Positions 13,234-58,679 of a stretch of 64,000 nucleotides of DNA are shown here, piece after piece. The position numbers and the translations under genes are program-made. Positions within the stretch are counted from its first letter, which is position 1. Each line of letters opens with the position of its first letter. Under the pieces are notes generated by a model. The model was given only the letters and a program-made list of their open reading frames with translations, was not told the DNA's origin and did not search any database. Origin of the DNA: a virus. Lineage: Duplodnaviria; Caudoviricetes. The DNA lies in IMG/VR virus record IMGVR_UViG_3300029288_000075, positions 96,001 through 160,000 of that record; one strand, written 5' to 3'.

Positions 13234-13262
13234 CTTATCCCCGAGCTATGCATGCCTTTTCA
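13234..13262 (-). promoter_or_regulatory. Phage promoter motif, copy 1
   Basis: TGAAA-N15-GGGGATAAG. Confidence 0.7.
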
Positions 13263-13267
13263 GGCAG

Positions 13268-13546
13268 TCAACTGGCTAGGAGCACTGGCTGGAAGTACGC
13301 GAAGGCAGAGCGCACCGCCTGTAGAGCGCACTCCCGAAGACTTGCCAGATCTTCTGAGGGGGTCGGTAGTCTGTACACGACCGACAGTGCGAGTTGGGCC
13401 GACGCCTCGGAGGTCACATCTAATCCCCGTAGAGCTTGCACCGCGACGGCATGCCCCGCCCGCTCGTAGTCGGTACGGCACATGTCGAGCATTACCTGTG
13501 CATTTTCGAGGGCATTGGAGCGCTCGATGTAGGTTTGCTTTGTCAT
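13268..13546 (-). CDS. hypothetical protein
   Basis: Coupled member of the minus-strand operon, AAGG RBS. Confidence 0.6.
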   Translation of the reverse strand: MTKQTYIERSNALENAQVMLDMCRTDYERAGHAVAVQALRGLDVTSEASAQLALSVVYRLPTPSEDLASLRECALQAVRSAFAYFQPVLLAS

Positions 13547-13728
13547 GGGTCACCTTGCGGTTGGGGTTTGATTGAATTGCCTACGTGTAGTGTGGTCACT
13601 TCTTTCCGAAGTTCAAGAAAATTCAGCGTGCGTGCTTGTAGTGGGTTCAACTCTTGTTGGCAACCTCGTGACGAACTGGGGGCTAAGAAAAGACGATGAA
13701 GGCTTACCGCCCTCACGTCCTTTCCCAT
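13543..13728 (-). CDS. small hypothetical protein
   Basis: AGGA RBS, MGKDVR...; stop overlaps the next ATG. Confidence 0.45.
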   Translation of the reverse strand: MGKDVRAVSLHRLFLAPSSSRGCQQELNPLQARTLNFLELRKEVTTLHVGNSIKPQPQGDP

Positions 13729-13742
13729 GCAGTTTCCTGCAG

Positions 13743-14087
13743 TTACACCACGCGTCGCATCGACCACAGCGTGCCTGCCAACGCCAACATCGCGATGGGT
13801 ACAGCCACCGAGCACACCTGCAGTGTGCGTTTAGCCAACCCCCAATAGGTGTATTCCCTGGGCACATATACGCTGGCTTGCGCCATTTGCTGCGCTGCCT
13901 GCTCCATGCCTCCCAAGGCAGTGCCTATGGTTTCCAGCACCTGCAGTGCCGGGTCGCTCTTGGTCTTCCTGGTTTGCGCGGTCTCCTGCTGTACTTCGCT
14001 CATGTTCGGTTCCTCCACGGCGCTTAGGCCGTAACGTTGTTGTAGTTTTCGTCGAGCACTTTGCTCTAGGCTGCGCACGTCAATCAT
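13743..14087 (-). CDS. Protein with a C-terminal transmembrane segment
   Basis: MIDVRSLEQ...; hydrophobic VCSVAVPIAMLALAGTLW. Confidence 0.6.
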   Translation of the reverse strand: MIDVRSLEQSARRKLQQRYGLSAVEEPNMSEVQQETAQTRKTKSDPALQVLETIGTALGGMEQAAQQMAQASVYVPREYTYWGLAKRTLQVCSVAVPIAMLALAGTLWSMRRVV

Positions 14088-14196
14088 CGAAGCGCCCCCG
14101 GGCTTGCGCCTCCCGAATCGCGTGCATGGTTTCGTTGTGTTGCCGAATGGCAACTTTGAGCAGGGAAATCCCTGTCCACGCTAAAGTGATCAGCAT
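14080..14196 (-). CDS. 38-aa small protein absent from the ORF track
   Basis: GGAGGAACTACA-ATG; MLITLAWTGISLLKVAIRQHNETMHAIREAQARGRFDD; overlaps the next start. Confidence 0.55.
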   Translation of the reverse strand: MLITLAWTGISLLKVAIRQHNETMHAIREAQARGRFDD

Positions 14197-14217
14197 TGTA
14201 GTTCCTCCACTACCTTT

Positions 14218-14245
14218 CTTATCCCCGTTTATGACCACTTTTTCA
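14218..14245 (-). promoter_or_regulatory. Phage promoter motif, copy 2
   Basis: TGAAA-N14-GGGGATAAG. Confidence 0.7.
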
Positions 14246-14280
14246 CGGAGCTAAGTTTCAGTGTGTCAAGGTCCTGTAAA

Positions 14281-14428
14281 CGGCACCCCACCAGCGAAGT
14301 GAGGGGGAGGGACTTCGCTGGTGGGGCAGTGGGGTAGAACTACGGTGGAGGCTTGCCGAAGGCAGCCACCGCGTAGGCGTTGGTCTCAGAGGAGGTAACC
14401 TGCCAACAGAGGAGATGCGCAACACCTA
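14281..14428 (-). ncRNA. Candidate structured small RNA with C-rich anti-SD-like loops
   Basis: Lies downstream of promoter copy 3; three hairpins, including a perfect 15-bp stem at 14286-14326; no RBS-led ORF. Confidence 0.45.
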
Positions 14429-14435
14429 CAACTAT

Positions 14436-14464
14436 CTTATGCCCTGCGTTCGCTGAAGTTTGCA
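14436..14464 (-). promoter_or_regulatory. Phage promoter motif, copy 3
   Basis: TGCAA-N15-GGGCATAAG. Confidence 0.6.
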
Positions 14465-14480
14465 GTGCTACGCTAGGGGC

Positions 14481-17400
14481 ATGCCGCTGAGTTCCAGCCA
14501 GATTGCGCAGATGAACGGGGCGTATGCCCAGCAGTACATGCAGAACCTGCAAATGTCGCAGATGATTCAGCCGCCTGGTTACAATCTCGGCGGGTACAAC
14601 ACGGGTGCACAAAACGAGGGAGCGGCAGCTAACGTCCTAAATAGGGGGTCTGCAGTTGGGGCACCCATCGCTGCGTTGGGAATGGGGTTGATGGGACTTG
14701 ACCCATTGTCCATGGGGATCCGTAGAGGAATGGCGGCGCACGGCATGGGGTTGGGTCTGGGTGGTTCTATGGTTGCGGGAGCTGCGGTAGCTGCGCCGAT
14801 GATGGCTGGCATGGCTGGCATCAGTTACATGGGCAACCAGATGATGACTGGTGCGCAGCAAACGCAGCAGTTTCACCAAGATATGCGCCAGGGGTACACC
14901 TTCTTCAATGCGGGGGGTACACATGGTAGAGGCTTCTCGGACCGCGGGATCACGCAAGTTGGGCATGACCTTCGCGGCATGGTCGGGCAGAGCGCTGGGC
15001 AGTTTGGGGGTACCTCAAGTCAGTTCGAGCTGGGTCCAAGCTTTGCAGAACTTGGCCGTTTGGCTTCGAGCATGGGGCGCATGGGGTTGGCTGACGGGGT
15101 ACGCAACGCCAAGGAGTTCACCGAGAAGTTTCGCGAGATGATGAAGTCGGTGAAGACCATTGCGGAGGACATGGGAACCACGCTGGAGGAAGCGCAGAAG
15201 ACCATGGCCGCCATGAAGGGCTCAGGGGTCTTCCGGAACCAGGCTGGTGTTGCCGGGGCGATTCGTGGCGCCAGCGTGGCAGGAAACATGGCGGTCACCG
15301 AAGTGACCGGGATGATGAACATCGGCTCTCAGATCAGTCGTATGTTCGGAGGCACTGGGCGGCAGGGCGCCATGGGCGGCATCAAGACGCTCGAGCAGGT
15401 TGGGCTTGCCCACCAAACCGGTGTGCTCTCGGAGGAGGACATCTACAACACCACTGGATTGACGGGGGCGGAAGGGCGTCGCGCCTTCGCGCAGGACCAG
15501 ATGATGCGTACAGGCTCTTTCCTCAAGAGCTCGAAGGGACGTTGGCTGATGGCGTCTTTGGCCGGCAAGGATGGGAAGTTGGACCAGGGGTCGGTCAACG
15601 ACTTCTTGGCCGGGGGTATGGGTGTAAACGACACCAGAGGTGCGGCTCACCGTAATCTGCGCGGCGTTGGGCGCGCCAACTTCATTCGAAATGAGGGTCG
15701 GCTGCGTGGCGCTGTGATGGAGGAATTTGGTGGCCTGGCGCCGGCGATGGCCATGATGGGTTGGGCTCAAGGCAAGGGGCTTGACATCAACTCCATGGGG
15801 GATCGGGAGATGCTGTTCATGCAGCGTCAGCTGGGTCTTGGGCGCGATGAAGCGGACTCTTTGATCAAGATGACGCGGGCATTGCCGGAGTTGATGCAGC
15901 ATCGTCGGGATGCCAAGGTTGACGACAGGTTTGCGCGCGAGCACGGGGTACGTGCACAAAACTCAGGGATAGAGGGGATCAAGCGGCGTCTCGACGCGGC
16001 CAAAGACAGCGTCAACAACGAGATGCAGAAGGTAGGACAGTCGGTGCTCGAGAGCATGACTGACACGGTGGCCGAATGGGGTAACAAGCTGGCCGGCACC
16101 TACGAAGAACGTGCCTACGAGGGTATTCGGGAGACCCACAGAGCGGCGCTTAGCGGGGGTCGCGCCGGTAAGGCGGCGACGGCCGCGCTTACTGGTGGAG
16201 GCAAGCTGTCGAAACTGTACGGGGCATCCGGCGGTGGCGGCTTCCTGCACGAGGACATTGGGCAATCGCGGTACGCGGAAAAGCTCACCGACATGCAGTT
16301 CTCTGCGCGCATGGCATCCGTCTCCGGCGTTTCTTCGGAAGTCAGCGCCTTGCTGGGTAGCAGCAGCTCTGCTTTGCGTGAAGCCTACGGGGGTACCGCG
16401 GGGCTCGCGGGGCTCGCGGGGGAAGACCGCATGTCTGCCTTCAAGCGGCAGTTCGGCAAGGACACTGCGTTGGGAAAGCACTTTCGCAGTCTAGATGCTG
16501 GAGGGCAGGCCGCCTTTATGCAGCAGGCAGAAGCCTCGATCGGCATGGACAAAGGGCGCCTGAGCGAGACCTTCCAGATGCCGGGGTTGGCCAAGCTGGT
16601 GGGGGGTGGTCCTGACCATACATTGGCCAAGCAGGACGAGCGACTCGGACGATCCATGCTTGGGCTCGAGCGCGGGGGTTTGGCAAGGGCGGCCGACCTG
16701 ATGGGTAAAGTGGGTGGGGGCGTTTTGGGAGCCCAAGTGACAGCGGCTGGAGCCGGCAGTGGCGCGGTGTTGGGTCTTGGCTTTGGCGCCATCCCAGGCG
16801 CGGTGTACGGCGCCAAGTTGGGCGGGTGGATTTCTTCAGGCATGGGTGCACTTGGTGGTGCGGCTGGGGATTTGATCGAGAAGTTCTCTGGTAGGTCCGG
16901 TATGGCCAAAGCTGCCGGTGCAATCTTCGAAGGTAAGCAGATGCGCGAGCTCGCCTTCGGCACGCTCACCGGCGAAGCGGGGTCCCGCGAGAAACTGCAG
17001 AAGGCCCGTATGGACATCCTGGGCGGCGCGGCGGAGCGCGGCGGGATGGACAAGCTGACCGACCAGGAAAAGGCCATGCTTGGTGGACTCGACGCCATTT
17101 CGTTGACGGCAAAGGTGAACACCGCCATCAACGCAAAGGGCGGTGACCCCAACAAGATGACGGACGCAGACTGGGAACCATTGCTCAAGGAGCGGCGTGC
17201 GGCGGTAGAGAGGATGGGAGGGGATCCCAGCACCGTTACAAAGGACTCTGTTCGGGTGATGGCACAAGGCGTTGGAGCTGCTGCGTACAAGGCGCAGGCA
17301 GAGATCATGGATAGACTTTCCAAGCAGGTTGGGCGTACTACGCAAGAAGAAGTGCAGGTGATGCGTGCAGGGAAGATTGCCACAGGAGAAGGCAAGCAGC

Positions 17401-18143
17401 CTCTTACGCTCACTGCAGAGGCGGCAGGGAGTCTTCGTAAAGCAGGCGGCGCGTTGGCTGTAGACACAGCGACTACCATCCTTGCCTCGCAGGATTTGGG
17501 ATTGCAGTTAGGACGTGCAACGTCTGAGGAGGAACGGAGTCGTATCTACGAGGAGTACGCGGGTAAGAAGGGGGCTGCGCGCGACATGATGAGCAACATG
17601 GACATCAAGAGTCTGCGTGCTCTTGGTTCGACCATGGCCGGCACTGAGGAAGGTGACGTTGCTACTGGCATGATCATGCGAGGCCAGGCGATGAAAGCTG
17701 GAGTGCGACGCAAGGGTGCCTTCGGCGCTATGGCAGACCAGCTGGGTGTGCGCATGGACAAGTCGCAGCTCGATGCAATGAAGGGTAAGAGCCCAGAGGC
17801 GCAGGCAGCTATGCTTGCTCGAGAGCTTGGTGTGGGCGGCGACCAGGGGTTTGTCAGTGCACTCACGGAAGCAGCGGGAACCATCGGTAAAAAGGGTGGA
17901 GAAGTGCGTGGGGCTGACTTGCTATCTAGGGCGAGGGAGCACGCTTCGGCGGATACCAGGACCAAGCTGGAGGCCTATGCAAAGGGTCAAGCGAGCCCGG
18001 AAGAGAAGATTCTTGATGCCCTCAAACTGAGCAACGACCACTTGAAGATCATGGCGGATGCAGTACCAAAGACTGAGTCCAAACTCTCAGCGATCTCAGC
18101 CAATTCCAGCAAGTGGTTTCCAGCCGACGGTGAAAAGTCATGA
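14481..18143 (+). CDS. Tape-measure-like tail protein
   Basis: About 1220 aa, Gly/Ala/Met-rich and helical, with a hydrophobic Gly-rich segment (GAVLGLGFGAIPGAVYGA); followed by baseplate-like genes; start at MPLSSSQ behind TGC-TACGCT-N6. Confidence 0.7.
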   Translation: MPLSSSQIAQMNGAYAQQYMQNLQMSQMIQPPGYNLGGYNTGAQNEGAAANVLNRGSAVGAPIAALGMGLMGLDPLSMGIRRGMAAHGMGLGLGGSMVAGAAVAAPMMAGMAGISYMGNQMMTGAQQTQQFHQDMRQGYTFFNAGGTHGRGFSDRGITQVGHDLRGMVGQSAGQFGGTSSQFELGPSFAELGRLASSMGRMGLADGVRNAKEFTEKFREMMKSVKTIAEDMGTTLEEAQKTMAAMKGSGVFRNQAGVAGAIRGASVAGNMAVTEVTGMMNIGSQISRMFGGTGRQGAMGGIKTLEQVGLAHQTGVLSEEDIYNTTGLTGAEGRRAFAQDQMMRTGSFLKSSKGRWLMASLAGKDGKLDQGSVNDFLAGGMGVNDTRGAAHRNLRGVGRANFIRNEGRLRGAVMEEFGGLAPAMAMMGWAQGKGLDINSMGDREMLFMQRQLGLGRDEADSLIKMTRALPELMQHRRDAKVDDRFAREHGVRAQNSGIEGIKRRLDAAKDSVNNEMQKVGQSVLESMTDTVAEWGNKLAGTYEERAYEGIRETHRAALSGGRAGKAATAALTGGGKLSKLYGASGGGGFLHEDIGQSRYAEKLTDMQFSARMASVSGVSSEVSALLGSSSSALREAYGGTAGLAGLAGEDRMSAFKRQFGKDTALGKHFRSLDAGGQAAFMQQAEASIGMDKGRLSETFQMPGLAKLVGGGPDHTLAKQDERLGRSMLGLERGGLARAADLMGKVGGGVLGAQVTAAGAGSGAVLGLGFGAIPGAVYGAKLGGWISSGMGALGGAAGDLIEKFSGRSGMAKAAGAIFEGKQMRELAFGTLTGEAGSREKLQKARMDILGGAAERGGMDKLTDQEKAMLGGLDAISLTAKVNTAINAKGGDPNKMTDADWEPLLKERRAAVERMGGDPSTVTKDSVRVMAQGVGAAAYKAQAEIMDRLSKQVGRTTQEEVQVMRAGKIATGEGKQPLTLTAEAAGSLRKAGGALAVDTATTILASQDLGLQLGRATSEEERSRIYEEYAGKKGAARDMMSNMDIKSLRALGSTMAGTEEGDVATGMIMRGQAMKAGVRRKGAFGAMADQLGVRMDKSQLDAMKGKSPEAQAAMLARELGVGGDQGFVSALTEAAGTIGKKGGEVRGADLLSRAREHASADTRTKLEAYAKGQASPEEKILDALKLSNDHLKIMADAVPKTESKLSAISANSSKWFPADGEKS

Positions 18144-18409
18144 CAAAGTCGCTCTTGTACCAAGGTCAGGTAGGGATGGTGGTTCCTCCTGGCTGTCTCC
18201 AGGGTGATCGCGTAGAGGTTCCTGTGTCCCTACGAAAGGATGGCAGGATCTATCGGTTCGTACTGCGCGACAAGTTGGTTGTTGAGGACGTGCAGTTGAT
18301 GCTCATGAAGGCGGCTGCCTTTGCCATCGCGCAGGGAGAGCCGTATGCAGGTACTCCGCCTGCTCGGGCACTTCGCGACGTTTTGATCAAGCAAGATACG
18401 GTGATGTAA
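18140..18409 (+). CDS. small tail-module protein
   Basis: Coupled to neighbours on both sides. Confidence 0.6.
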   Translation: MTKSLLYQGQVGMVVPPGCLQGDRVEVPVSLRKDGRIYRFVLRDKLVVEDVQLMLMKAAAFAIAQGEPYAGTPPARALRDVLIKQDTVM

Positions 18410-20316
18410 TGGCAGTGTATATTGAACTCACCACGGACCCGTTTATTGCCAACTACCAGCGCATGGTAGACAGGAATGACCCAGCGTTGTCCCGCAGTGG
18501 CAGGGCGGGGCTTGCCAATGTACGTCGGCCGTTGCGCGGTGTAGAGATCAAAGAGGACACCTACGCGTGCCTGAAGGTATTGCGTGCCGACGGTAGTGAG
18601 ATGCCGTTCATGGATTCCAGCTCGGCGAATGGCCAGTCTACCTCCTATTCCAACTTCATCCTGCAGTCGGTGCAGGAGCAGCGTATGGAGAAGCACCAGA
18701 TTGTGGAAACCTTTGGGGACACCTACCTATTTCTGTTTGGGGAGGCTCCGAGGTTCCTTGACGTCAGTGCGGTGCTGCTCAACAGCAACGACTTCAACTG
18801 GGAAGCTGAGTGGTGGGCAAATTGGGAGACTACGCTGCGTGGTTCGAAGTCTGTGGAGAATGGCGCACGTACCTACTTGTTCTACGACGACAACATCGTC
18901 GAAGGATACATGCTGATGGCGCAGGCGCAGAAGATCAGCACGGAGCCGATTCAAATACCTCTTACTTTTAGGCTCTTCGTCTCCAGCATCCGCAACGTAT
19001 CTTCAATAGGAGATCCAAACTTTCCCGTTGCAGAGTCGGTATTCTTGCCGCCAGATGTCTCACTTACTAGCGGCGATGCATTCCAGCAGCTGCGGGACTA
19101 CTACGAGGCCAACAACGGGTACCTGAGTCCGGGACAAGCCAACTCCTGGATGGACAACGTGTTGAGGAATACAGACCCCCGTCAACTAGGTACGGGCGCA
19201 AAGCTGGTGGACTTGTTGAAGCGTGGAACCCGCGCCATTGCATTCCCCTCGAGCGTTCAGGCGTACTTGGATGAAGCATCCCCTACTCTGGGCGTGCAGA
19301 ATGTGTTGGGCATGTACGACAGCAAGCCGATGCGCAGTCTGATTGCTGACAACGCAGACGAGTACACTGGGTATGACCCAAAGAACGCAGAGCTGAATTC
19401 TCAGTTGCCCGAGGTGTACGACCCAAGAGTTCGTGGTCAGCTCGAGGTAGAGGACTTGTTCCAAGAGGCAATCCAGTGGATGAGTTGCTTTGGGGCGAAC
19501 ATCAACAGCTACAATGCGCTCAATGGATTAGGCATGGGCGTGAACTTCTTGCCCAGTACAGGCGTTGGTATTGGCATTGGTGGTAGCGCGGGGTCAGGCT
19601 TAGGAGCTACCTTTGGCGCCGTCCCCGCGGGTGGCGGTGTTGGCTTTGGCGTCAATAACCGCAGCGGCGTGACCGGTGGCATGTTCGCAGGTCCCGGTAC
19701 CTACGGCTCAGCGCAGCAAGGCATGGCGTCAAATGGTTTTGGGATGGCGCAGGCTGGACAACCTGTCTACTCGCCAGGGCAGTTGTCCTCGGCACGTAGT
19801 GATGTGTTGTTCAGCGCCGGCGCCAATAACCGGTACCCGAACGACACGTTGTCCACAGGCTATGGAGATCCCGGGTACGGCTATTCTGGTCCGTACGGCG
19901 GAGCTGGCTACGGTCAGTCCGGTTTTGGAGACTACGGGGGGTTGGGGTACGGCTCGAGCTTTGGGTCCACCGGGGATCCCGGGTTTATGCCGCCGTCGGC
20001 GTTCAGCCGAGCCGGGATTGCGGATACCCGTAGTGACTTTCAGCGGTTGACTGCACCCAAGCCCGGTTTTGGCTCTGGCTTTGGTGGGGTACCCGCGGGG
20101 GCAAGCTTTGCCGGTGCCGGTGCCGGTGCTTCCGTATCGGTGGGCGGTTCTTTGACTGCGTTCTCGATTTTTGCAGCGCCAGGGACCTTGAATCCGTATG
20201 GCAATGCGCTGGCGGCAAATGGGAGACGTCTTGGTTTGACCGAGAGGAACCCGTTTGGGGTACCGTGCCTTGGTGCCACAGGACTTACCAGAATCAACCT
20301 ACTGGACATGATTTGA
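18409..20316 (+). CDS. Putative baseplate or tail-tube-initiator-like protein with a Gly/Tyr-rich C-terminus
   Basis: Position after the tape measure gene; beta-rich N-terminal domain (FILQSVQEQRMEKHQIVETFG...); function inferred. Confidence 0.45.
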   Translation: MAVYIELTTDPFIANYQRMVDRNDPALSRSGRAGLANVRRPLRGVEIKEDTYACLKVLRADGSEMPFMDSSSANGQSTSYSNFILQSVQEQRMEKHQIVETFGDTYLFLFGEAPRFLDVSAVLLNSNDFNWEAEWWANWETTLRGSKSVENGARTYLFYDDNIVEGYMLMAQAQKISTEPIQIPLTFRLFVSSIRNVSSIGDPNFPVAESVFLPPDVSLTSGDAFQQLRDYYEANNGYLSPGQANSWMDNVLRNTDPRQLGTGAKLVDLLKRGTRAIAFPSSVQAYLDEASPTLGVQNVLGMYDSKPMRSLIADNADEYTGYDPKNAELNSQLPEVYDPRVRGQLEVEDLFQEAIQWMSCFGANINSYNALNGLGMGVNFLPSTGVGIGIGGSAGSGLGATFGAVPAGGGVGFGVNNRSGVTGGMFAGPGTYGSAQQGMASNGFGMAQAGQPVYSPGQLSSARSDVLFSAGANNRYPNDTLSTGYGDPGYGYSGPYGGAGYGQSGFGDYGGLGYGSSFGSTGDPGFMPPSAFSRAGIADTRSDFQRLTAPKPGFGSGFGGVPAGASFAGAGAGASVSVGGSLTAFSIFAAPGTLNPYGNALAANGRRLGLTERNPFGVPCLGATGLTRINLLDMI

Positions 20317-20317
20317 C

Positions 20318-23300
20318 ATGACGGTGCATGCACAGCGGATACATCTTCGGATGTTCTTGGAGGGGATTGAGATACCGATAGTTGGGATCCAGCTGCAGGG
20401 TTTGCCAAACTCTCCGCTTCTGGCTTCTATTCAGATACCTCCTGTAGCTGAAGGCACCCGGCTACTTCCCAGAACCTTGGTGCATGTGTTTTTCCGAGAT
20501 CCGTACGAGTCGGTGAGTCCGCACTTAGCCCGTACAAGCACAGGGGGTACTACGCCGACTGATTACCAAACGGCGTTGGAGAAGCGACAGGCAAGCAATC
20601 CGGAGGGCGTATCAAGTCTGCTAGATACCGAACTGACTCGGTACAAGCACTTCTTCTCTGGGGAGATACTTGGGTTTGCTTGGACGAAAGATCAAGCCCA
20701 GCGGTCTCTTGTGCTTCAGTGCGCCGACCTATCGAACTACTGGGACTACGCGTACCAGTGGACGAACACAGACCTCTTTGGGCCTGGTATCAAGGCTATG
20801 TTTTCTGGTGGGTCTACGAACTTGTTCACTGACTTCTTGTCGAGCTCGGGTGAGGTCATCACGAACATCCTGCGTACTCCTTCCATCACCTTCCCCAAGT
20901 TGAAGGGACTTGCTGGTGGGATAGTACATCTGCTCGAGGCCATCGGAGGGACGTACTACTACGACCGTAAGATCGCAGGACAGAACATCTTCTTTACGCT
21001 GGCCGAACTGCGGTTGCACATCAACCAGATGATCATGGCCATAGAAGATGATCCTACTACGGCTCGCCTGTTGGCTACGCAGGGGTACAGCGGCATGATG
21101 AGTCGTCTGCTAGGCGGTATGGGTGGTCAGACGTCAATTCGTCAAAGCATCACAGCGTTACAGGGGATCATCTTCCATGAGACCTACGCGCAGCCCTGCC
21201 CCCGCTACGTACCAGGAACTTTGAATCCTACGTCGGCCGCAAACCGTGTACGCCTAGCGGATGACCCCAGCACTGCCTTTGTAGTCAGTGCGGCACAGCA
21301 GGCACTTACAGACATCGGTATGATCAAGCGGCAGCTGCATTCAACGGAAGGCGATGTGGAGGCTAGTAAGCTTGCTGCACAGGCAGGTGTACGTAGTTCA
21401 CTGCAGCAGCAGGTCATACTGCAGACTCGCAAGTTGCAGTCGTACCTCAAGTCGCTCATCATGCAGCTCAGGCGGGTGACTCCGGCGGCCCCCAAAGCAG
21501 TGTCTTTGCTCACCACCGCGTCGCAGCAGCTTGGAAGCGCAGGGACTGCACTAGCTCGTTGGAGTCCCAATAGCACAGCCTCCACAGGCAAAATAGAGGG
21601 TTTCCTCAATACCGCTGAGAATGCCTTGAAGTCTCTGTCGAACATGACTCGAGAGACGGCAGTCAAATCGCGCCCAGCCCCACCCAGGCTGGCTCAGCAG
21701 ATTTTACGGCCAGACGTGTGGTTCAGCGCTCCTCCCAGATGCAACGTACTGTTCCCTGAACACTACAGTAGGCTCAACTACTCTCGGAACTTTATGGAGG
21801 AGCCAACCCGGCTACTGCTCAAGACCAACGACGAATTCTTTGGAGAAGACGAGCTGTTCGACCGCCTGTACTTTGCGCCAAAGACGACCAGCGTGAAGAA
21901 GGCCAAGGCAGACTTGCAGGCCATGCTACAGAATGACCTATTGGAGCATGAGCTCTATACTGGAATCTTGCCCGTGTTCGAAAAGATGGGCGAGCTCAAC
22001 ATCTTTGCGGCGCGCGGTGGTGTGACTACAGGCCGTGTAGCTCAGGTAGGTCTGGCACAGCGTTCTGCCAACTTTCTCTACTTCAAGTATCGTTTTGCGT
22101 CGCGCCAGATGACCGTGTCAGGACGGTTCAACCCGTACATTGCGTTGGGGTTTCCCGGGTTAGTCATTGACAAGTACGCTGACGAGGAGATGCTGCGGTT
22201 GCACAACGAACTTCGTGTAGCGACAGGATCTTCGGCACGCGATATAAACAAGCTCTTGGGGACTGCCTTCTTGGGCAACTTCACGCAAGTGTCGTTCGTG
22301 GTCAACAACCAGGGAACAGGCACTACTGACATCGTGATGAGCTACCCTCGGCAGACCGATGAGGGTGTGGAGTTCTTGGGTACCACGGATCCGCAGGACT
22401 TGTCCGTTAGCAAACGTCTCGAGCAGGATGCCGTGCGCGTAACTGATGTGGCCTCCGTAGGGCAGCCACTCATTGACTCATTGGGTCCCAACCTGGGTAG
22501 AATCACGCAGGTGGAGGAGGTAAGCCTGTTGTACCGTGGCAGTACGCAGTCTGGAGATCCACAAGACACGATGAGCAGCAAGCCGCTGCTGCTGTTCAGC
22601 AAGCAGGACAGTAGGCAGCCGCGGTCTCCCGAATCGCGCAAGTCCGCGCGGGTACCTGTTGGTGTGGAGGTGGACGCAAGGGATCTCGATAAGGCGGTGC
22701 TGAAGGAACTGGGTCTTTTTGGGGCTGGTGCAAATCCTGATGGGTGGTTCGGAGATAGCCAAGCCAAGAACAAGGCAGCCGGGTCCTCTTCAGCAGACCA
22801 GTTCTACAAGAGAACGCGACCGATAACCATTCGGGCATACCGCATTCGTGAAGAGATCCCGCGGTATCGTCAACTGCCAGTTGACTTGCCGGCAGAGGAG
22901 TACATTCGACCTGGTTGGTACGGCGATATATGGAGCTCTGCGCGCATTGGTGAAGCGTACGACACTTTCTTTGCTACCGGGGCAATCACTGACCCGCATG
23001 TAATCGGGGATCCCGAGGGGCAGCAACGGGCAGCTACAAACAACGGTGCCGCGGACGCACAGAATACAGCTGCCGAGACCACAGACCCGAATAGCCCACA
23101 GAAGGATGCTCCCGTGGTGTACCAACTCGAGGCAGGGGCAACCATCGAGCAGGCTGCGGGATACCTTCAGGCCATGTACAGTCACATCAAGCTGAAGGGG
23201 CTTGACGTCGAGGAATTCATTCGGGCGTACACCTATCGTCCTATTGCCACGCTGGTGGACATCTTCGGTACTCGAGATCTCTCTTTGAGCGCGGATGGAG

Positions 23301-23512
23301 CCTACGTACTCTCAGGTGTGGAGGGCTTTCATTCCCGCGCCTTTGGGCAGTTCAACGACCTGTTCGGGCTAGTTACCCCAGAGATAGTGGAGGTGGTTGG
23401 ATTGAAGAGAGGTACAACGGCGGCACAACGAGGCGACACGCGCAAAGTGAAGCAGGACGCAGTCAAAGACTATCTTGCGGGGCTGGGTCTAGGTAGGGCA
23501 ATACTTGGGTAG
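20318..23512 (+). CDS. Putative baseplate hub or large tail protein
   Basis: 1064 aa in the tail operon; function inferred from synteny. Confidence 0.45.
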   Translation: MTVHAQRIHLRMFLEGIEIPIVGIQLQGLPNSPLLASIQIPPVAEGTRLLPRTLVHVFFRDPYESVSPHLARTSTGGTTPTDYQTALEKRQASNPEGVSSLLDTELTRYKHFFSGEILGFAWTKDQAQRSLVLQCADLSNYWDYAYQWTNTDLFGPGIKAMFSGGSTNLFTDFLSSSGEVITNILRTPSITFPKLKGLAGGIVHLLEAIGGTYYYDRKIAGQNIFFTLAELRLHINQMIMAIEDDPTTARLLATQGYSGMMSRLLGGMGGQTSIRQSITALQGIIFHETYAQPCPRYVPGTLNPTSAANRVRLADDPSTAFVVSAAQQALTDIGMIKRQLHSTEGDVEASKLAAQAGVRSSLQQQVILQTRKLQSYLKSLIMQLRRVTPAAPKAVSLLTTASQQLGSAGTALARWSPNSTASTGKIEGFLNTAENALKSLSNMTRETAVKSRPAPPRLAQQILRPDVWFSAPPRCNVLFPEHYSRLNYSRNFMEEPTRLLLKTNDEFFGEDELFDRLYFAPKTTSVKKAKADLQAMLQNDLLEHELYTGILPVFEKMGELNIFAARGGVTTGRVAQVGLAQRSANFLYFKYRFASRQMTVSGRFNPYIALGFPGLVIDKYADEEMLRLHNELRVATGSSARDINKLLGTAFLGNFTQVSFVVNNQGTGTTDIVMSYPRQTDEGVEFLGTTDPQDLSVSKRLEQDAVRVTDVASVGQPLIDSLGPNLGRITQVEEVSLLYRGSTQSGDPQDTMSSKPLLLFSKQDSRQPRSPESRKSARVPVGVEVDARDLDKAVLKELGLFGAGANPDGWFGDSQAKNKAAGSSSADQFYKRTRPITIRAYRIREEIPRYRQLPVDLPAEEYIRPGWYGDIWSSARIGEAYDTFFATGAITDPHVIGDPEGQQRAATNNGAADAQNTAAETTDPNSPQKDAPVVYQLEAGATIEQAAGYLQAMYSHIKLKGLDVEEFIRAYTYRPIATLVDIFGTRDLSLSADGAYVLSGVEGFHSRAFGQFNDLFGLVTPEIVEVVGLKRGTTAAQRGDTRKVKQDAVKDYLAGLGLGRAILG

Positions 23513-23532
23513 TTCCACTTTGGCCAGTGGAA
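23513..23532. repeat. Inverted repeat TTCCACT-N6-AGTGGAA abutting the promoter of the 23548 cluster
   Basis: Perfect 7-bp arms; possible operator or hairpin. Confidence 0.5.
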
Positions 23533-23547
23533 TGGTACAACTGATCC

Positions 23548-23784
23548 ATGCTGAACGCTCAAGTTCTATCCAGTTTTGGTGCAGAGGTATCGAAGGTAGC
23601 TGCCAAGAAAGACGTGGGGCAGCTCCTGGCTAGCTTGGCTTCAAGGCAGGGGCATAGGCCTTCGCTTTTCCCTAGCATTCAACAAGTGAAGAATGTGGCG
23701 ACCCGAGATCGTGGTCGAGCTGCCGAAATTGCCTCCAACATCCGCTCTACGTTGAAGAACACTGCCGCGGTGCAGGCGGCTTAG
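23548..23784 (+). CDS. Putative head-internal protein (K-x-A motif)
   Basis: SSFGAEVSKVA N-terminal motif; TGG-TACAAC-N6-ATG. Confidence 0.55.
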   Translation: MLNAQVLSSFGAEVSKVAAKKDVGQLLASLASRQGHRPSLFPSIQQVKNVATRDRGRAAEIASNIRSTLKNTAAVQAA

Positions 23785-23786
23785 CC

Positions 23787-25205
23787 ATGGCTGTCCCGAC
23801 TCTTGTGACGCCGTTGCTTACCCTACTGGTCAAGGTGTCCGCTGCACGTTCTCGCATGACCGTGTCGCAGACGCGGTCAGGCAGACGCCCGATGCGTGTG
23901 GAGACCATGCTCAAGAAGGACAACGAGGGTACCCTGTATCGCAATTGGAAGGATCACATACCCGGCGGATTGGCAGACAAGAAGAAGCCCACTGATTTCG
24001 ATCCTGCTGCGTTGGCCAAAGGTACCAAGGTGGAGTTCGAGCACACCGACAGGCTGCTTACTGCGTCTGAGATTGCCATGGACCACCTTGTCGAGGACCC
24101 TCGGTACTACGACAAACTCGAGAAGATGGAAGAGGGTGGGGCTAAGCATGCTGGTTTGTTGGATGTGTTGAAGGCTCCTATTCCTGGGACCAAGGACTGG
24201 TTCGTGAACACCGGTAAAGCTGGACTGCAGGGAGCTCATAGACTCACGGGCACCATGCCTGCGCGTCCCGGGGCATTGCGAACTGCAGCGAATTCGGTGG
24301 CTCCTGCAGCACGGGCGTCAGGGGCTCTGCCTGTTGCACGTGGCGGGGTGTACGGGATCTCGGAAGCGGAGCTGCAACGTCTAGGCTTTGGGGATTTGAT
24401 GAAGTCGGGGTCTGCTAAAAAGGTCGAAGACCTGAAGAAGGCGGCCTATCGTCTGCAAGGTCACACGGAAGTACAGGGACTTCCAATCGCCATCGAAAAT
24501 AGAAAGGGCTCTGTGCGGTCTGGCGAGGACCCAGACGGCACCCCGTGGCGCACGAAGTACAAGTACCCTTACGGTTACCTCGTGGGTACCAAGGGAAATG
24601 ACGACGAAGAGATTGATGTCTACGTAGGTCCCAACAAGGCAGCCCCCAACGCGTACGTAGTACATCAGCACAAGGTCACTGGCAAAGGCTACGATGAAGA
24701 CAAGGTGATGTTGGGTTTCGAGTCGGAAGCAGCTGCTAGGGCGGCGTACCTCGAGCACTACAACAAAGTTGGACCAAAGCTTCTTGGTCCCATCACGGTC
24801 ATTGCCATGAAGCGGCTGATAGAGATGCTGGCGCAGAAGAAGGAGTACAAGAAGCTGGCCACAGCCGACATATCCAACAATACGCTGATGACGGACCGAG
24901 CGGGGCCAACTACACGTAGCAAGCCTGGTGATGTACCAGACGCTATGGATGTGGCATTCTCCAAACTCAAGCAAGCATGGGATGGCGTTGGCTCTAGTGG
25001 AGGTCCTACCGGAAACAGAATGGCCATGCTTGACATGGATGAGAAGCCCGATCGAACAAAGCCGGGTGATGTACCATCACGGGATGGAACCAGTCCCGGC
25101 GCCGCACGCATCGAGCGGCATGAGGCAGGGCCGGATTTCATGACCACGTTACCTACGAACGGCGCCATGGCTAGTTCTCAGACCGGAGCAACTACGAGGC
25201 TTTGA
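23787..25205 (+). CDS. Multidomain protein: DUF5661 plus polyvalent-protein inorganic pyrophosphatase (InPase) domain
   Basis: IPGGLAD...KGTKVEFEHT...EIAMDHLVEDPRYYDKL (DUF5661); GLPIAIENRKGSVRSG...YGYLVGTKGNDDEEIDVYVGP...YDEDKVMLGF (InPase). Confidence 0.8.
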   Translation: MAVPTLVTPLLTLLVKVSAARSRMTVSQTRSGRRPMRVETMLKKDNEGTLYRNWKDHIPGGLADKKKPTDFDPAALAKGTKVEFEHTDRLLTASEIAMDHLVEDPRYYDKLEKMEEGGAKHAGLLDVLKAPIPGTKDWFVNTGKAGLQGAHRLTGTMPARPGALRTAANSVAPAARASGALPVARGGVYGISEAELQRLGFGDLMKSGSAKKVEDLKKAAYRLQGHTEVQGLPIAIENRKGSVRSGEDPDGTPWRTKYKYPYGYLVGTKGNDDEEIDVYVGPNKAAPNAYVVHQHKVTGKGYDEDKVMLGFESEAAARAAYLEHYNKVGPKLLGPITVIAMKRLIEMLAQKKEYKKLATADISNNTLMTDRAGPTTRSKPGDVPDAMDVAFSKLKQAWDGVGSSGGPTGNRMAMLDMDEKPDRTKPGDVPSRDGTSPGAARIERHEAGPDFMTTLPTNGAMASSQTGATTRL

Positions 25206-28116: not shown

Positions 28117-28133
28117 CATGTAGCAGGCATAAG
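28106..28133 (+). promoter_or_regulatory. Phage promoter motif, copy 4
   Basis: TGCAA-N14-AGGCATAAG. Confidence 0.65.
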
Positions 28134-29108: not shown

Positions 29109-29132
29109 GCGTTGTACACTTGTCGGAGGCAA

Positions 29133-30340: not shown

Positions 30341-30368
30341 CGTAGAACCCACTGGGCTACGTATTGAT

Positions 30369-30397
30369 AGGCGACGTGCGTCAGCACGCCGCCTTTT
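30369..30397 (+). terminator. Intrinsic terminator after the sigma gene
   Basis: AGGCGACGTGC-GTCA-GCACGCCGCCT followed by TTT. Confidence 0.6.
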
Positions 30398-30406
30398 GGA
30401 GTTTTC

Positions 30407-50957: not shown

Positions 50958-53900
50958 ATGGCAAATTACACCAGCGATGAGATTCAGACCGCCGTAGAGC
51001 AAATCGTGCGCTCTAGCATACGCACACCCACCGGCAGCGTCGGTGAAAGGCGGGTTGATACAACATTCACGGACCTCCAAGAAGCTGCCTCAGGGGTGTT
51101 CGTTCTCTACTACAATGCCCCGTTCTACGTCATCGGGCTGGGAACTACAAGAATCGCCGACGCAGCCCAAACCCAGCAGCAAACCCTCAATTCCATCGTG
51201 GATGCCATCAGAGCCCTCGGGAACATCGTAACCCCCGTGGGAGACATCTCCTCGCTTGCTAACGCGAAAGCTGCCCTCCAGGAGCTCGAAGGTGCCGTAG
51301 GAGCTCGAGCTCAGGGGTTTTCCGACATCTCCAACGTGCCCGCCTTCAGAAGGTACGCCCAGAACCTCTCCAAGTTCGTCGATGACTACGGTGGGAACGT
51401 GAAGGGGTTCGTGGAGGATGAGGAGACTGGTGCGTCCGTCCCAGGCATCGTAGACACCCCCTCGGGGGCCAAGTCCAAGATCCCAGGCCTCGTGAAGCAG
51501 ATGATTGAGCAGCACAAGGAGCTGGTCCGCCGTGTAACCCAGCTTGCGGGGGCCATGGACGACTTCGCCAGTCTCCAGCTGCCTCAGGTGACTGCCCAGG
51601 GCGTCATCTCGAGGGCTCGGCAGGTGCTGGACAGCCACTACGACACGCTTTCGGGCCAAACCCCCGAAGAGCGCCTTGGTGACCTGCGCTCAATACTGCT
51701 GGACTTGCTCACCCAGCAGCCGCTGGTGCAGCAATACGGGGCTGCCTTGGGCCCAAGCGAGTACATCACCACGAAGGGGCGTGGGGTTGCTACCAGCGAT
51801 GGAACTCATCTGGCCTCACCGGCGCAGCTCGCAGCCACCGCGTACGGTCCATACCCAATCACTGAGGCGAACCAGTTCGTGCGGTTCACCATGGATGGAG
51901 GCACACCCTTCAACTTCCCACTGCCGCTGGGCTACGTGGCAGAGCTGCGGTCCATCTTCTCTGGCCCGTACTTGATAGATGCCACCAACGACCGTCTCGT
52001 GGTGGACTTTGGTCTGCCAGGGATGATGGTGCGCTACACCGTCGCACTGACCCATGGCACTTTTTATGCGGAAGGCATTGCCATACAGGCGAATGTAGCC
52101 TTCGGTGCCATCTCCTTACGGTGCGAGACGTTCTTCAACCCGATCAAGTACGAGTCACATGTAATCACCACGGTGGAGAGTACCAACGTGGCGCGTTTCA
52201 CCTTGATGGCAGGTGGACTCACGGGGCTCAACATTGCCTTGACCGATGAAGTAGAAATTCTGGATGGGCCCAATGCGGGAACCACGTGGGCTATCACCTT
52301 CGTGGACCCTGCGGGGCAGTATGTACTTGCCGGTGGTACTACAAACGTGACTCCGGTGGGGCTTCCCGACGGAGTGCACATCCAGATTGGGCCCGCAGAG
52401 CGTTCGCTAATGCTCGTTGATACCGACGCTGCCACGTCTTTGGCAGTTCGAAGGGCTATCAGCCTGCCCATCACCAATGGCGTTGGAGATCTAGGGGCAG
52501 CAGTGTTGGGATTCTACCCAGGGATGCAGGTGCGCTCAAGGGCTGTGGCCGCCGCAGACGTGGCCAACTACATTGCCAAGTCCACTACGCTGCTCAATGC
52601 CAGTGCTGAGTTTGGCGACATTCGCTACACTGGCAATGCCCGCTCGTACGAGACGGATCATGGCCGTATCGTGCTGTCCGAGTACTACGGCACTGGCAGT
52701 ATTACGGCCGGCACAATCACCACGTACACACCTGATGTTGCGCTGCCAGCTACGGTGCAGGTTGGATTCAAGTTTGTGGTCCGTGCTTCTATCACCCCAG
52801 GAGATATAGGTAAGGTGGGTACTGTTGTGCAGCTGGTGCCCATCGTCAGAGTGGCGTTTTCCGTAGCTATCGTAGCGGGGACCATTACGGCCGAGGCTGG
52901 CCCAAGCGTGTGGTTCGACGCGGGGGACATCTTGAAGATCACCGCGGGGCCCAATCAGGGCAGGTACGTGGTGCGTGAGGAAGCCGGGTACCAGACAGAC
53001 AGTCCACTTGAGATTCTGCTTGAGGCGTCGCTACCTGTACCAATCGCAAACGGGACGTTTTCTACCTTCTCGGTGGAGCTAGGTGCGGAGCGTGTGGTGT
53101 TCGCAAGCCGGGTTCCTCAGACGACCAGCACGGTGGTGGTGAACAACCCAGTGAGTGCGGGGTCAGGAGCGGAGTACTTTTTTGCCCCTACGGAGTTGCC
53201 GGCGAGTGCAGAGGGTACAACTCCGTGGATGAGGTTCACGCAGTACCCTGCTGGCGTACAGGTGGGTGACCTCATGCAGTTGTTCGAAACGGACTTCCTC
53301 ACACCAAGCAGGGCCTACACCATCACGAGTACAGAGCAGGGAACTAGGTTGCTGAAGGTGACGCCTGGACTGCTGCCCGATGATGACTTCTCCTTCGAGT
53401 TCAACACGCCAGTGCCTTTCGGGCGCATTCGAGTGGCGAAGGTAGCGGACTTTCAGGAGCTCAAGACACGCTTGACTACTTGGCTAGGGCTGTCTGAACA
53501 ACAGCAGCTGTATCTGACGGGGATCTTGCCGGTGTTGAATCCGCTACTCACTACTACGAACCCCACGGCGTTGCAGATTGGGGATGCGGTCAACTACTTC
53601 CAGGCGGTGTCCGAGGTCCTTACGGTCAAGGCAGCCACGAACCACGTAGCACCGGTGTCTGCCACGCTCGAGTATGCGCTGCAGCAGTACACGCCACCCC
53701 CAGAAGAAGCAGTCGATACATTATTGGCAACTTTCAGGCATAAGGGAGCTGATAGAGCGATTGACCTACTGCTTGAGGGACGCTTCGGTGACTTCTTCGG
53801 TTTGAGCATGGATGAGTCCAGCTACTCCGGGATGTTGTTGAAGGGCATCCGAGACATGGCCCGAGAAGACCTGCCAGTCCGCAGGTTCGACAGGCGTAAG

Positions 53901-55021: not shown

Positions 55022-55024
55022 CTA

Positions 55025-56772: not shown

Positions 56773-56773
56773 G

Positions 56774-57016
56774 GTGGCTGAATCGTCCAATGGTGCTGAC
56801 GCCAGGACGCCGAGGTATCTTCTTGTTGGGAAGCAGGTTGGTAGGGAGCTGGCCTTGTTAGGTACAGCTCCCAGCTGGGAGCAGGCCATGGAGGGTGTTT
56901 ACGCTTTACTCGATGGGTGTCCAGAAGGGGTGCTGCTTGTGGATACTATTGAGCGAAGGTCACGTCTCGTGAAGAACAAGAATACTCTAGTCAACAAGGC
57001 TGAGGAGACGGGTTAG
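56774..57016 (+). CDS. small hypothetical protein
   Basis: GGAGG-GTG start. Confidence 0.55.
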   Translation: MAESSNGADARTPRYLLVGKQVGRELALLGTAPSWEQAMEGVYALLDGCPEGVLLVDTIERRSRLVKNKNTLVNKAEETG

Positions 57017-57018
57017 CC

Positions 57019-57243
57019 ATGGCATACGGCGAGTTGGTTACGATAGAGGACTGCAGGGTGGTGGCGGTCTCCACAAAGAACGAGTCGGTCCTTGTCCACA
57101 ACGACGAGTGGGATGAGGACCTCTGGTTCCCAGACAGTCAGATTGACGACAACGCATCCGAGATCTACAGCGGCTGCAAACGCGGGGATACAGGAAAGCT
57201 CGTCATCACGGAATGGATTGCCAAGCAGAAAGGGATCCTCTGA
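57019..57243 (+). CDS. small phage protein
   Basis: WFPDSQI...LVITEWIAKQKGI. Confidence 0.65.
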   Translation: MAYGELVTIEDCRVVAVSTKNESVLVHNDEWDEDLWFPDSQIDDNASEIYSGCKRGDTGKLVITEWIAKQKGIL

Positions 57244-57246
57244 GTT

Positions 57247-57489
57247 ATGGCGTACTACGTAGTTGCTGGTAGCAACGCGAAAGGGGGTCTTGTTGTTTTG
57301 GATACGTACAAGGGGTGGCTCGTCTACGGTGTAGACGACGTATTGCTGTACGCCTGTGGGCGTCACTTCAAGAGTCACGCGGAAAGTAAGCGGGCTGCTG
57401 CACGAGCTCTTCGGATGTACCCAACGTACAGACTAGTACCTACAAAAGTTGTCATAGGAGGGCCTGCTAGTGTGCCACGGGCCTCCTGA
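57247..57489 (+). CDS. small hypothetical protein
   Basis: 80 aa within the array. Confidence 0.55.
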   Translation: MAYYVVAGSNAKGGLVVLDTYKGWLVYGVDDVLLYACGRHFKSHAESKRAAARALRMYPTYRLVPTKVVIGGPASVPRAS

Positions 57490-57605
57490 GAAGGTACCAA
57501 TCCAGAATGACTGAGGTGATTCATCGCCTCTTGTGGTGCATCGTGGCTGGCCTACTATTCGTGGCGCTGGCTGCGATGCATTCTATAACCCGAAAGGATT
57601 GATGT

Positions 57606-58034
57606 ATGGCTAGCCCACTGCGCAAGCTGACCTTTGACGATGTTGTATTTACCGTAGAGGCTGTAGAGGACGACACGCCGATACAGGGAAATGCACAGGC
57701 TTCTGATGATCCAAGGGCAGACAAGGCCTACGAGTGCGAGCTTCTGCTGCGGCGGGCTCAGGGTGACGTCTGGGCCTGGGCGCTGGTGCGGGTGATTGCC
57801 ACGTGGAAGTACTTCCGTGGATCAACCGTTCTGGGTGGTTGCACGTACAAGGACCTCCAGGAGTTCATGGGTGACGTCTACTACGCCGACATGAAGATTC
57901 AAGCGCTGGATGATCTGCAGGAGAAACTCCAGCACACCTACGACAATCTAGCGGAGCTGGTGGTTGACGAATCCGCCGCGCTGCGTAGGCAAATTGCCGA
58001 ATACGAGGAGCTATTGGCAGATGACGGAAAGTGA
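57606..58034 (+). CDS. phage hypothetical protein
   Basis: AAGGA RBS; VWAWALVRV...LGGCTY. Confidence 0.65.
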   Translation: MASPLRKLTFDDVVFTVEAVEDDTPIQGNAQASDDPRADKAYECELLLRRAQGDVWAWALVRVIATWKYFRGSTVLGGCTYKDLQEFMGDVYYADMKIQALDDLQEKLQHTYDNLAELVVDESAALRRQIAEYEELLADDGK

Positions 58035-58279
58035 GAGCATAAAGGGACAGCACAATTTGTTGGAGTTCGAGTACTTCCCTTCTCGCGGCCTGTGCATTAT
58101 TCGAGCACTGCACTCTGGTGCATATTACGCCCGCATCCGCAACTTGGACACGTCGCCTGAGGTTTGTCCTTTTCCAGGAATCTGGGTGTCCTTAGAGACC
58201 TTGCGGTTGGCTATGGAGTTCGTAGGACAGCACAAGGCGGACAAGCCCGCCAATCCCCCTGTGGTTACGGATCACTGCC

Positions 58280-58564
58280 ATGCGAAATGAGCAGGTGGAC
58301 CGGCGTGCCTTTATCCGTTGGACAGCGGCAGGACAGACGCTGCTCCTCGAGCGGGACAGGGCAGGTACCGTGTATGTACTTCCCGACGACGGTGGTCCAG
58401 AGGAGAAGCGCATGCATGAGCTGGTGGAAGCGCTGGATCGCGGTGAGACCATAGAGTTGGTGAATTCAGGGACAGGGAAAGTGCTGTCTACGATGGAGCT
58501 CACCGACGACGGTTACGTAGAGCGTCTGGCACCAGGCGTGGTGGTACGCGAGTTGGACTACTGA
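58280..58564 (+). CDS. small hypothetical protein
   Basis: 94 aa, last gene of the array before a hairpin. Confidence 0.55.
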   Translation: MRNEQVDRRAFIRWTAAGQTLLLERDRAGTVYVLPDDGGPEEKRMHELVEALDRGETIELVNSGTGKVLSTMELTDDGYVERLAPGVVVRELDY

Positions 58565-58568
58565 GGCA

Positions 58569-58597
58569 GCGGCGTCTTGTACTTCACAGGGCGCCGC
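58569..58597 (+). terminator. Hairpin at the end of the array
   Basis: 12-bp stem with G-U pairs immediately after the stop. Confidence 0.4.
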
Positions 58598-58651
58598 CAG
58601 CAGCTCATCTTCAGGGGAATTCGCCTTTTCTTAGGTGTCTTTTGCGGCATA

Positions 58652-58679
58652 GGAAAGTCGGAGTGGATTGAGGCATAAG
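58652..58679 (+). promoter_or_regulatory. Phage promoter motif, copy 7
   Basis: GGAAA-N14-AGGCATAAG. Confidence 0.6.

Follow-up and report, generated by a model that had tools for sequence, protein, structure and literature searches.

The window analysed here is a stretch of 64,000 nucleotides (nt), bases 96001-160000 of the 187,857-bp contig of a tailed phage (Caudoviricetes; IMG/VR record IMGVR_UViG_3300029288_000075), in which a two-block motif, TG[A/C]AA-N15/16-GG[G/C]ATAAG, recurs ahead of genes. The motif is a real, multi-copy, oriented promoter-like signal. Judged from the sequences, it is on balance best explained as the promoter class of a whole phage family, which would be read from the start of infection by the phage sigma factor encoded at 29585-30340 together with the phage's own beta-beta' RNA polymerase. 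In the mechanism proposed here, the promoter would comprise a -35-like TGMAA element (core AA), a spacer of 16 +/- 1 nt and the -10 box GGSATAAG, followed by a weakly conserved initial-transcript block (A.AG.T) that runs directly into the Shine-Dalgarno sequence. About 20 copies would drive the non-structural units of the 188-kb genome, namely minus-strand single-gene cassettes of promoter, open reading frame (ORF) and terminator, a small-gene array, a NUDIX unit and the sigma operon. The replication block would be driven through weaker variants of the box.

The source record is a single contig with 57% guanine plus cytosine (GC) and an estimated completeness of 99%. This genome is referred to as G000; its genes were called within this analysis, and 7% of it was called non-coding. 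The only sequencing runs found to contain the stretch were three DNA metagenomes (landfill, groundwater), with no RNA run among them, and a record search found no phage record near-identical to this genome.

A two-block motif in the non-coding DNA

A first-pass annotation had reported seven copies of the motif in the window, and direct sequence search recovered all seven with the same positions and strands. The one-base variants of the -35 element in copy 6 (TGAAG) and copy 7 (GGAAA) were confirmed, as was the downstream leader common to copies 2 and 5, GGGGATAAGAWAGGTAGWGGAGGAAC. It also holds that six of the seven sites point into a gene led by a ribosome-binding site, the start codons lying 20-41 nt past the box. 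The genome-wide enrichment on which that annotation's promoter proposal depended was found as well, the ATAAG box being the top intergenic word in the 188-kb genome. When intergenic k-mers were ranked by enrichment without any prior, GGGGATAA, GGGATAAG and GGCATAAG came out top.

GGSATAAG occurred 8 times in the window against 2.2 expected, a number reached in none of 100 shuffles. The strict form TG[AC]AA-N15/16-GG[GC]ATAAG was found 5 times in the window (0.01 expected) and 10 times in the genome (0.03 expected). Allowing at most one mismatch, TGMAA was located 15-17 nt upstream in 18 of the 21 genome copies of GGSATAAG, and 15 of these 18 bipartite sites fell within the 7% of DNA that is non-coding; 13 of the 18 lay on the minority coding strand. 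A two-block weight matrix gave a bimodal score distribution over the whole genome, with 20 sites scoring at least 19 bits. These were the 18 seed sites (20-33 bits) and two variants (19.1 and 22.6 bits). Apart from a box copy at 53737, the remaining genome matches scored 12-15 bits and were mostly in coding sequence.

The geometry of the sites was uniform. The box at all 18 is GGGATAAG or GGCATAAG, and the hexamers SATAAG and cTGMAA stand 18 nt apart. Between the two conserved blocks the spacer has a fixed length and no sequence conservation, and the block positions are repeated in six genomes. At 16 of the 17 intergenic sites of this phage the box ends in G, and both the T at -15 (the T of TG) and the T at -12 have been lost. 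In most sites the start codon follows 15-25 nt past the box (range 15-41) with a Shine-Dalgarno sequence between, and six minus-strand sites have a common leader, GATAAGAWAGGTAGWGGAGGAAC.

The sites were also placed as promoters are, being intergenic, directed at genes and positioned at the heads of transcription units. They head 9 of about 12 minus-strand units, and several of them precede minus-strand units of one or two genes that are set between plus-strand operons and ended by a hairpin with a T-run. The targets had been described as small-gene arrays and minus-strand islands, not structural operons, and the placement of sites across the genome supports this. No site was found ahead of the operons with the RNA polymerase (genome 52188-58583), the terminase (65041) or the major head protein (75604), nor ahead of the large virion-protein operon at 14460-27718 of the window. 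Weaker variants precede the replication block with its DNA polymerase A, DnaB-like helicase and RecA-like genes (GGCAAAAG at genome 42158 and GGCACAAG at genome 35342). Duplication of paralogous cassettes was rejected as the origin of the repeats, the proteins downstream of the sites being mutually unrelated. Most of the motif-headed target genes gave no match in Pfam and PHROGs searches.

The structural operons had in turn been credited with sigma-70-like -10 boxes, for which we found no support. Bipartite matches to the sigma-70 consensus were depleted: the genome held 39 where Markov simulations gave 62 +/- 7, and only 3 of the observed matches were intergenic; positions 1-20000 of the window held 2 against 6.3. 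This depletion may mean that the phage avoids the host holoenzyme. A second, late promoter class was also sought. Strand-aware k-mer enrichment upstream of genes yielded the ATAAG box and the Shine-Dalgarno sequence alone, and a search for repeated 12-mers gave no further regulatory repeat. GTATTC, GTAGGC, GTACAAY and TAYAMT were tried as late-promoter candidates and dropped, as none had a consistent context. Comparing the regions upstream of 20 structural genes between G000 and a relative, G001, revealed a shared TATACT before the polymerase gene and nothing else.

Conservation among relatives and the phage transcription proteins

A profile search with the sigma factor returned 38 loci whose sigmas are more distant (24-33% identity); most of them lie on contigs of 170-195 kb. 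Motif counts in 20-kb loci around the sigma gene (36 relatives) were uninformative, as these loci contain too little intergenic DNA; the promoter words of relatives were therefore counted on whole records, with control counts given per strand.

In two viral contigs whose sigma is 62% identical, both boxes remain at the orthologous places, namely before the sigma unit and at the divergent pair of sites, and the spacers differ. In L003, L004 and L022 the equivalent of promoter 4, the site heading the sigma unit, stands about 1.5 kb upstream of the sigma gene. The 195.6-kb genome G001 (60% GC; 62%-identical sigma) displays the same genome-wide regulon, in the form cGG[G/A/C]ATAAGA followed by the leader and ATG. 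In more distant relatives GGTATAAG is strongly enriched and strand-biased across 43-56% GC, and either GGNATAAG, GGTATAAG or GTTATAAG is enriched and strand-biased in all relatives analysed (43-61% GC), which include Salmonella and Vibrio phages. GGNATAAG occurs on the majority and the other strand 33 and 4 times in G004 (controls 5 and 8), 34 and 3 times in G005 (controls 4 and 10), 35 and 7 times in G006 (controls 8 and 8) and 53 and 5 times in G007 (controls 12 and 17). The corresponding counts of GGTATAAG are 42 and 1 in G008 (controls 1 and 4), 36 and 0 in G009 (controls 2 and 3) and 30 and 1 in Salmonella phage Arash (controls 2 and 3). Vibrio phage D69 and contig G010 showed no enrichment of GGTATAAG; de novo analysis found TGTTATAAG in use instead.

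When six genomes were aligned on the box, the same two further blocks flanked it in all of them, an AA-containing element 16 nt before it and a T or TG about 6 nt after it. The family-wide signal can be written as AA, N16, [T]G[G/T][T/S]ATAAG and, after about 6 nt, a T. In every genome the box ends in G at 70-95% of the intergenic sites, T being rare even at 44% GC. GGSATAAG looks like a derived variant of the relatives' TGGTATAAG/TGTTATAAG, an extended -10-like word ending in G.

The sigma factor, the polymerase and the ATAAG box occurred together in 12 of the 12 genomes examined, and exactly one polymerase beta gene was present in each of the 10 relatives tested. In relatives with a strong strand bias, this gene lies on the strand opposite to the motif. 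The box also varies along with the sigma, although the independent changes are few: GGS boxes accompany sigmas with RFNAKHQN, and GGT or GTT boxes those with R[LM]NY[KT]YQN. A forward box precedes the sigma gene by about 1.5 kb in this clade and by 325 nt in the Arash clade, and the AT-rich clade has no forward copy before it. The sole forward-strand GGTATAAG of the Arash clade (Arash 11588-11595; the -325 sites of L024, L030, L039, L041, L047 and L055) stands 4 nt ahead of the start codon (ATG) of the small gene preceding the sigma gene. A transcript from it would start inside that small gene, leaving sigma as the first complete ORF.

Arash (OQ632216; PMC10585845) and the Vibrio phages D69, D148 and D181 belong to the same phage family as the phage studied here. 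Their polymerase is likewise of bacterial type, and their sigma is a homologue at 23-30% identity that lies syntenically within a structural operon. Arash carries GGTATAAG 30 times on the non-structural strand and once before the sigma gene, and in D69 GTTATAAG plays the equivalent role. They differ in that beta and beta' are separate, the sigma has no N-terminal K-x-A leader and box position 3 is T, not G or C. Neither this promoter nor transcription in Arash-like phages was described in the papers searched. Two sets of strongly intergenic repeats were seen in other relatives. G007 has clusters of GGTGTCCA/TGGACAC at about 39.7-40.3 kb and 76.3-76.9 kb, and G005 has an element of about 60 nt with two ACGTTTGA copies on the structural-gene strand at 26.3, 63.5, 95.2, 135.6 and 169.8 kb. 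They could be origin-like or late regulatory elements.

The genome has a single sigma-like gene, 29585-30340(+), which encodes a sigma-70-family factor of 251 amino acids comprising regions 2 to 4 (Pfam Sigma70_r3; weak NCBIfam matches; PHROG 351). It had been called a FliA/SigF-like group-3 sigma. That description suits its compact architecture, in which regions 2, 3 and 4 are present and region 1.1 is absent, but not its family membership, as every curated NCBIfam family model is failed widely (30-35 bits against cut-offs of 190-234). Against the SigBFG model TIGR02980 it scored 34.6 bits (cut-off 234), residues 75-250 aligning to positions 41-225 of 227, and against the FliA/WhiG model TIGR02479 30.6 bits (cut-off 189.6). 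A profile built from 15 members of the sigma family, searched against the PDB, gave its best matches to primary sigma factors (SigA at 1.5e-15), followed by SigF at 3e-9 and FliA at 9e-9, and it aligned to regions 2-4 of SigA.

The likeness of the sites to sigma-28 promoters, which that annotation had proposed, turned out to be superficial. Sigma-28 promoters of the FliA/WhiG type (TAAA-N15-GCCGATAA) share with these sites an A-rich -35 element, a spacer of 15 nt if GATAA is taken as the point of alignment, and a G/C-rich 5' extension of ATAA. However, none of the 18 sites has the CCGATAA core, the relatives' box is TGGTATAAG/TGTTATAAG and the box of this phage appears to be derived from TGGTATAAG. 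A FliA-class promoter with GCCGATAA was rejected, given that the CGA core is absent at all sites and the sigma fails the FliA/WhiG model and falls outside that family.

The N-terminal leader of the sigma, MNAADEFLETKQKTAA (29585-29632), is very like a head-module protein, MNPAEEFLTEKKAF, which is encoded between the terminase and the major head protein. Leader-like proteins are found at genome 70045-70635 (the MNPAEEFLTEKKAF head-module protein) and 88780-89127 (..AEQFLREKAAS). This leader of about 13 residues was gained in this clade, the Arash and D69 sigmas having none. Its likeness to the head-module protein fits packaging of the sigma in the virion.

The only RNA polymerase encoded in the genome is a fused beta-beta' chain of 2131 amino acids (Pfam), whose gene lies among the structural operons. 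The ORF with the beta domain measures 2131-2165 amino acids where beta and beta' are fused, 3259 in G003 and 1136-1546 in the others. These lengths in G001, G003 and G004-G010 indicate that the fusion state changes within the family. The TATACT shared with G001 precedes the initiation codon of the fused polymerase gene by 10-11 nt (ATG 52188; G000 52172-52177, G001 146708) without a Shine-Dalgarno sequence between. It could belong to a leaderless or differently initiated late transcript.

Candidate readers of the box

Two blocks at a fixed spacing of 16 +/- 1 nt are the signature of the sigma-70 family, whose members read them via regions 4 and 2. This geometry points to a sigma-70-family reader, and the phage encodes one. 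As its only sigma-family gene, 29585-30340 is the best candidate for the role of motif reader that it had been given from the outset, and it would recognise the box while acting with the single-chain phage beta-beta' polymerase. The partner enzyme is probably the phage polymerase, in view of its co-occurrence with the sigma in 12 genomes and of the Arash virion proteome, where the polymerase is represented by beta, which tops the spectral counts, and by beta', alongside the sigma Gp10 (PMC10585845). Because the polymerase gene lacks the motif and lies among structural operons, and because these components occur in the Arash virion, the holoenzyme would probably be delivered with the DNA and be active at these promoters as soon as infection begins. 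Carriage of the holoenzyme in the virion would account for a sigma-type promoter standing before early-looking genes and none before the polymerase gene.

Another arrangement, which we regard as rather unlikely, is that the phage sigma reads the box with the host core RNA polymerase, as SPO1 gp28 and phiEco32 gp36 do, and that the phage polymerase serves another class such as the late genes. The sigma gene has its own ATAAG promoter and terminator and the polymerase gene, among structural operons, has none, so sigma could be synthesised early even if no phage polymerase were newly made; in agreement with this, the sigma has kept its regions 2 to 4 in a recognisable form that aligns to bacterial SigA. 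On the other hand, sigma and phage polymerase co-occur in 12 of 12 genomes and both are reported in Arash virions (PMC10585845). In the accounts given by PMC8948821 and PMC4331800, SPO1 gp28 with gp33/34, gp36 of phiEco32 and 7-11, and T4 gp55 likewise pair a phage sigma-family protein with its own promoter word before a temporal gene class. Those sigmas serve middle or late genes on the host core, whereas here the targets are non-structural and early-looking and the catalytic subunits are the phage's own.

Many phages use strong host-type early promoters, and the boxes might be extended -10 promoters (TGnTATAAT-like) for the host primary sigma holoenzyme, early in function and kept by the family. 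The spacing of the SATAAG and cTGMAA hexamers has the sigma-70-family architecture, and the relatives' TGGTATAAG/TGTTATAAG match TGn plus 5 of 6 bases of TATAAT. The family consensus shares the T-G-G/T-TATAA-G layout with extended -10 promoters, with G at -14 and A-T-A-A at -11 to -8 in all clades. But promoters of the primary sigma have a conserved T at -7, and here the final base is G in 70-95% of sites per clade with T rare even at 44% GC. The T at -12 and the T of TG are lost in this phage, for which an extended -10 promoter was rejected, and upstream stands TGMAA or CAATAA, not TTGACA. The word stays constant over 43-61% GC and over hosts of different genera, and sigma-70-consensus promoters are depleted here, not enriched between genes. 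The conserved G for T, the constancy of the word and this depletion together make the host primary sigma a quite improbable reader.

We consider it very improbable that the phage polymerase recognises the box without sigma, or with another phage factor, and that the sigma serves an undetected class. The precedent would be the phiKZ- and AR9-type phage polymerases, which work without a canonical sigma as far as the accounts in PMC7598289 and PMC5449584 go, and a second specificity must exist given that no promoter was found for the structural operons. Yet the fixed-spacer geometry is that of a sigma-70-family promoter, only one sigma-like gene is detectable, and the box variants follow the sigma clades. 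The virion polymerases of phiKZ, AR9 and N4, as portrayed in PMC7598289, PMC5312081 and PMC4496689, share with the system proposed here the carriage in the virion and the transcription of early genes from phage-specific promoters with no host enzyme. They differ in having no sigma-70-family factor and in using single-block, hairpin-type or template-strand signals; phiKZ and AR9 moreover have two polymerases with beta/beta' split into several pieces, whereas the present phage has a single RNA polymerase, a single sigma of canonical appearance and a promoter of the -35/-10 type. According to a comparative survey (PMC7824862), jumbo phages with polymerases of their own lack a sigma, and those with a sigma lack polymerases. 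An RNA-level signal instead of a promoter, whether a processing site or a translation enhancer by the ribosome-binding site, would suit a box 15-25 nt from the Shine-Dalgarno sequence or start codon and the six sites fused to a conserved leader. It is hardly credible, however, given a second conserved block at a fixed distance upstream across an unconserved spacer, and sites that head divergent units and isolated opposite-strand cassettes, where transcription has to begin.

Several points weigh against reading the box with a phage holoenzyme. We infer both the promoter function and the identity of the reader from sequence, and the same applies to a transcription start at the box and to the timing. 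The Arash virion list comprises 116 proteins including ribonucleotide reductase, and its authors allow for carry-over of abundant proteins (PMC10585845), so that packaging of the sigma in Arash virions is not proven. In the AT-rich relatives the box, TGGTATAAG, comes near to an extended -10 promoter of the sigma-70 type, and the presence of the box at the sigma operon but not at the polymerase gene also suits a sigma acting on the host core. The agreement between box variants and sigma clades depends on only two or three independent changes and may stem from common descent. For the structural operons the searches brought up no promoter class, which leaves the transcription programme incomplete. 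For the family as a whole (about 170-195 kb) we put forward, as a tentative proposal with somewhat less than even prospects, that a packaged and injected polymerase and sigma would start infection independently of the host, using a -35/-10 promoter of their own with a -10 box that ends in G, and that the sigma gene keeps a copy of this promoter.

Individual sites and what the promoter class would mean

Promoter 1 occupies 13234-13262(-), with TGAAA (13258-13262)-N16-GGGATAAG (13234-13241) and 27.7 bits; the start codon of its target, a gene for 192 amino acids (12614-13192, -), lies 41 nt past the box. Promoter 2 at 14218-14245(-) scored 29.6 bits. It carries the conserved leader GATAAGAAAGGTAGTGGAGGAAC, the ATG follows 21 nt past the box, and the targets are minus-strand ORFs of 38 (14080-14196) and then 86 amino acids (13743-14003). 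Promoter 3 (14436-14464, -; TGCAA-N16-GGCATAAG; 28.6 bits) is a second, tandem promoter 218 nt upstream of promoter 2 and faces the same unit. This minus-strand unit is closed by an intergenic, intrinsic-terminator-like hairpin with a T-run at 13691-13716(-), which has an 8-pair stem (13716-13696), a T-rich tail and -15.9 kcal/mol. Within the unit, CGAAA-N16-GGCCTAAG was noted 19 nt before the ATG of the 86-amino-acid ORF (window 14003-14030; genome 110023, -). Its score does not reach the matrix threshold, and it may be a weak promoter internal to the unit. The stretch from 14218 to about 13700 is one of the terminator-closed minus-strand cassettes; others run from genome 48037 to 47695 and from genome 67987 to 67681.

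Promoter 4 (28106-28133, +; TGCAA-N15-GGCATAAG; 25.0 bits) heads a plus-strand unit of four genes at 28169-28756, 28749-29108, 29112-29588 and 29585-30340, the last being the sigma gene. Directly past the sigma stop codon, an intergenic hairpin with a T-run (30362-30400, +; genome 126394; -15.6 kcal/mol) is the likely end of the sigma unit.

Promoters 5 and 6 form one of two divergent pairs, 39152(-)/39237(+), the other being genome 175405(-)/175462(+). Promoter 5 (39152-39180, -; TGAAA-N16-GGGATAAG with the conserved leader; 28.2 bits) has an ATG 20 nt past the box and is directed at a gene for 86 amino acids (38871-39131, -) and a gene at 38005-38901(-). Its ortholog is kept in L003 and L004. 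Promoter 6 (39237-39264, +; TGAAG-N15-GGCATAAG; 23.2 bits) faces the long plus-strand small-gene array starting at 39285, and its ortholog in L003 and L004 is GGTATAAG, ahead of the same MGDV..KPPQ protein.

Promoter 7 (58652-58679, +; GGAAA-N15-GGCATAAG; 22.8 bits) precedes a NUDIX-domain gene (Pfam) ending at 59672, with the ATG 24 nt past the box. Its -10 is overlapped solely by a long ORF call with a TTG start; the likely start is the ATG at 58704, behind CAGGAGG. The eighth GGCATAAG of the window (53737-53744, +; 17.7 bits) lies within a gene for 1025 amino acids and lacks a -35 element (-35 score of -0.5 bits), and it is probably not a promoter. Among other short elements, TAGCTAGCTAGC was observed in an intergenic gap at window 7948-7959, and the palindrome TAGCTAGC is enriched between genes, with 6 of its 10 genome copies located there.

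Phage transcription strategies are usually of two kinds, in which the phage either redirects the host enzyme with a sigma of its own or brings its own sigma-less polymerase. The family described here appears to combine both: it brings a polymerase of bacterial type together with a sigma that looks canonical, and its promoter is sharply defined. With about 14 informative bases, that promoter is simple; it is maintained between 43% and 61% GC and is present in the cultured phages Arash (Salmonella) and D69 (Vibrio), which makes the proposal directly testable. If it is true, the sigma, the polymerase and the promoter would constitute a compact orthogonal set, and the GGS, GGT and GTT boxes would be a natural specificity series for how sigma region 2 reads the bases from -12 to -7. 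The non-structural transcription units of many uncultured phage genomes would then become annotatable. Should the holoenzyme indeed be packaged, the family would possess a host-independent transcription system of a kind so far undescribed.

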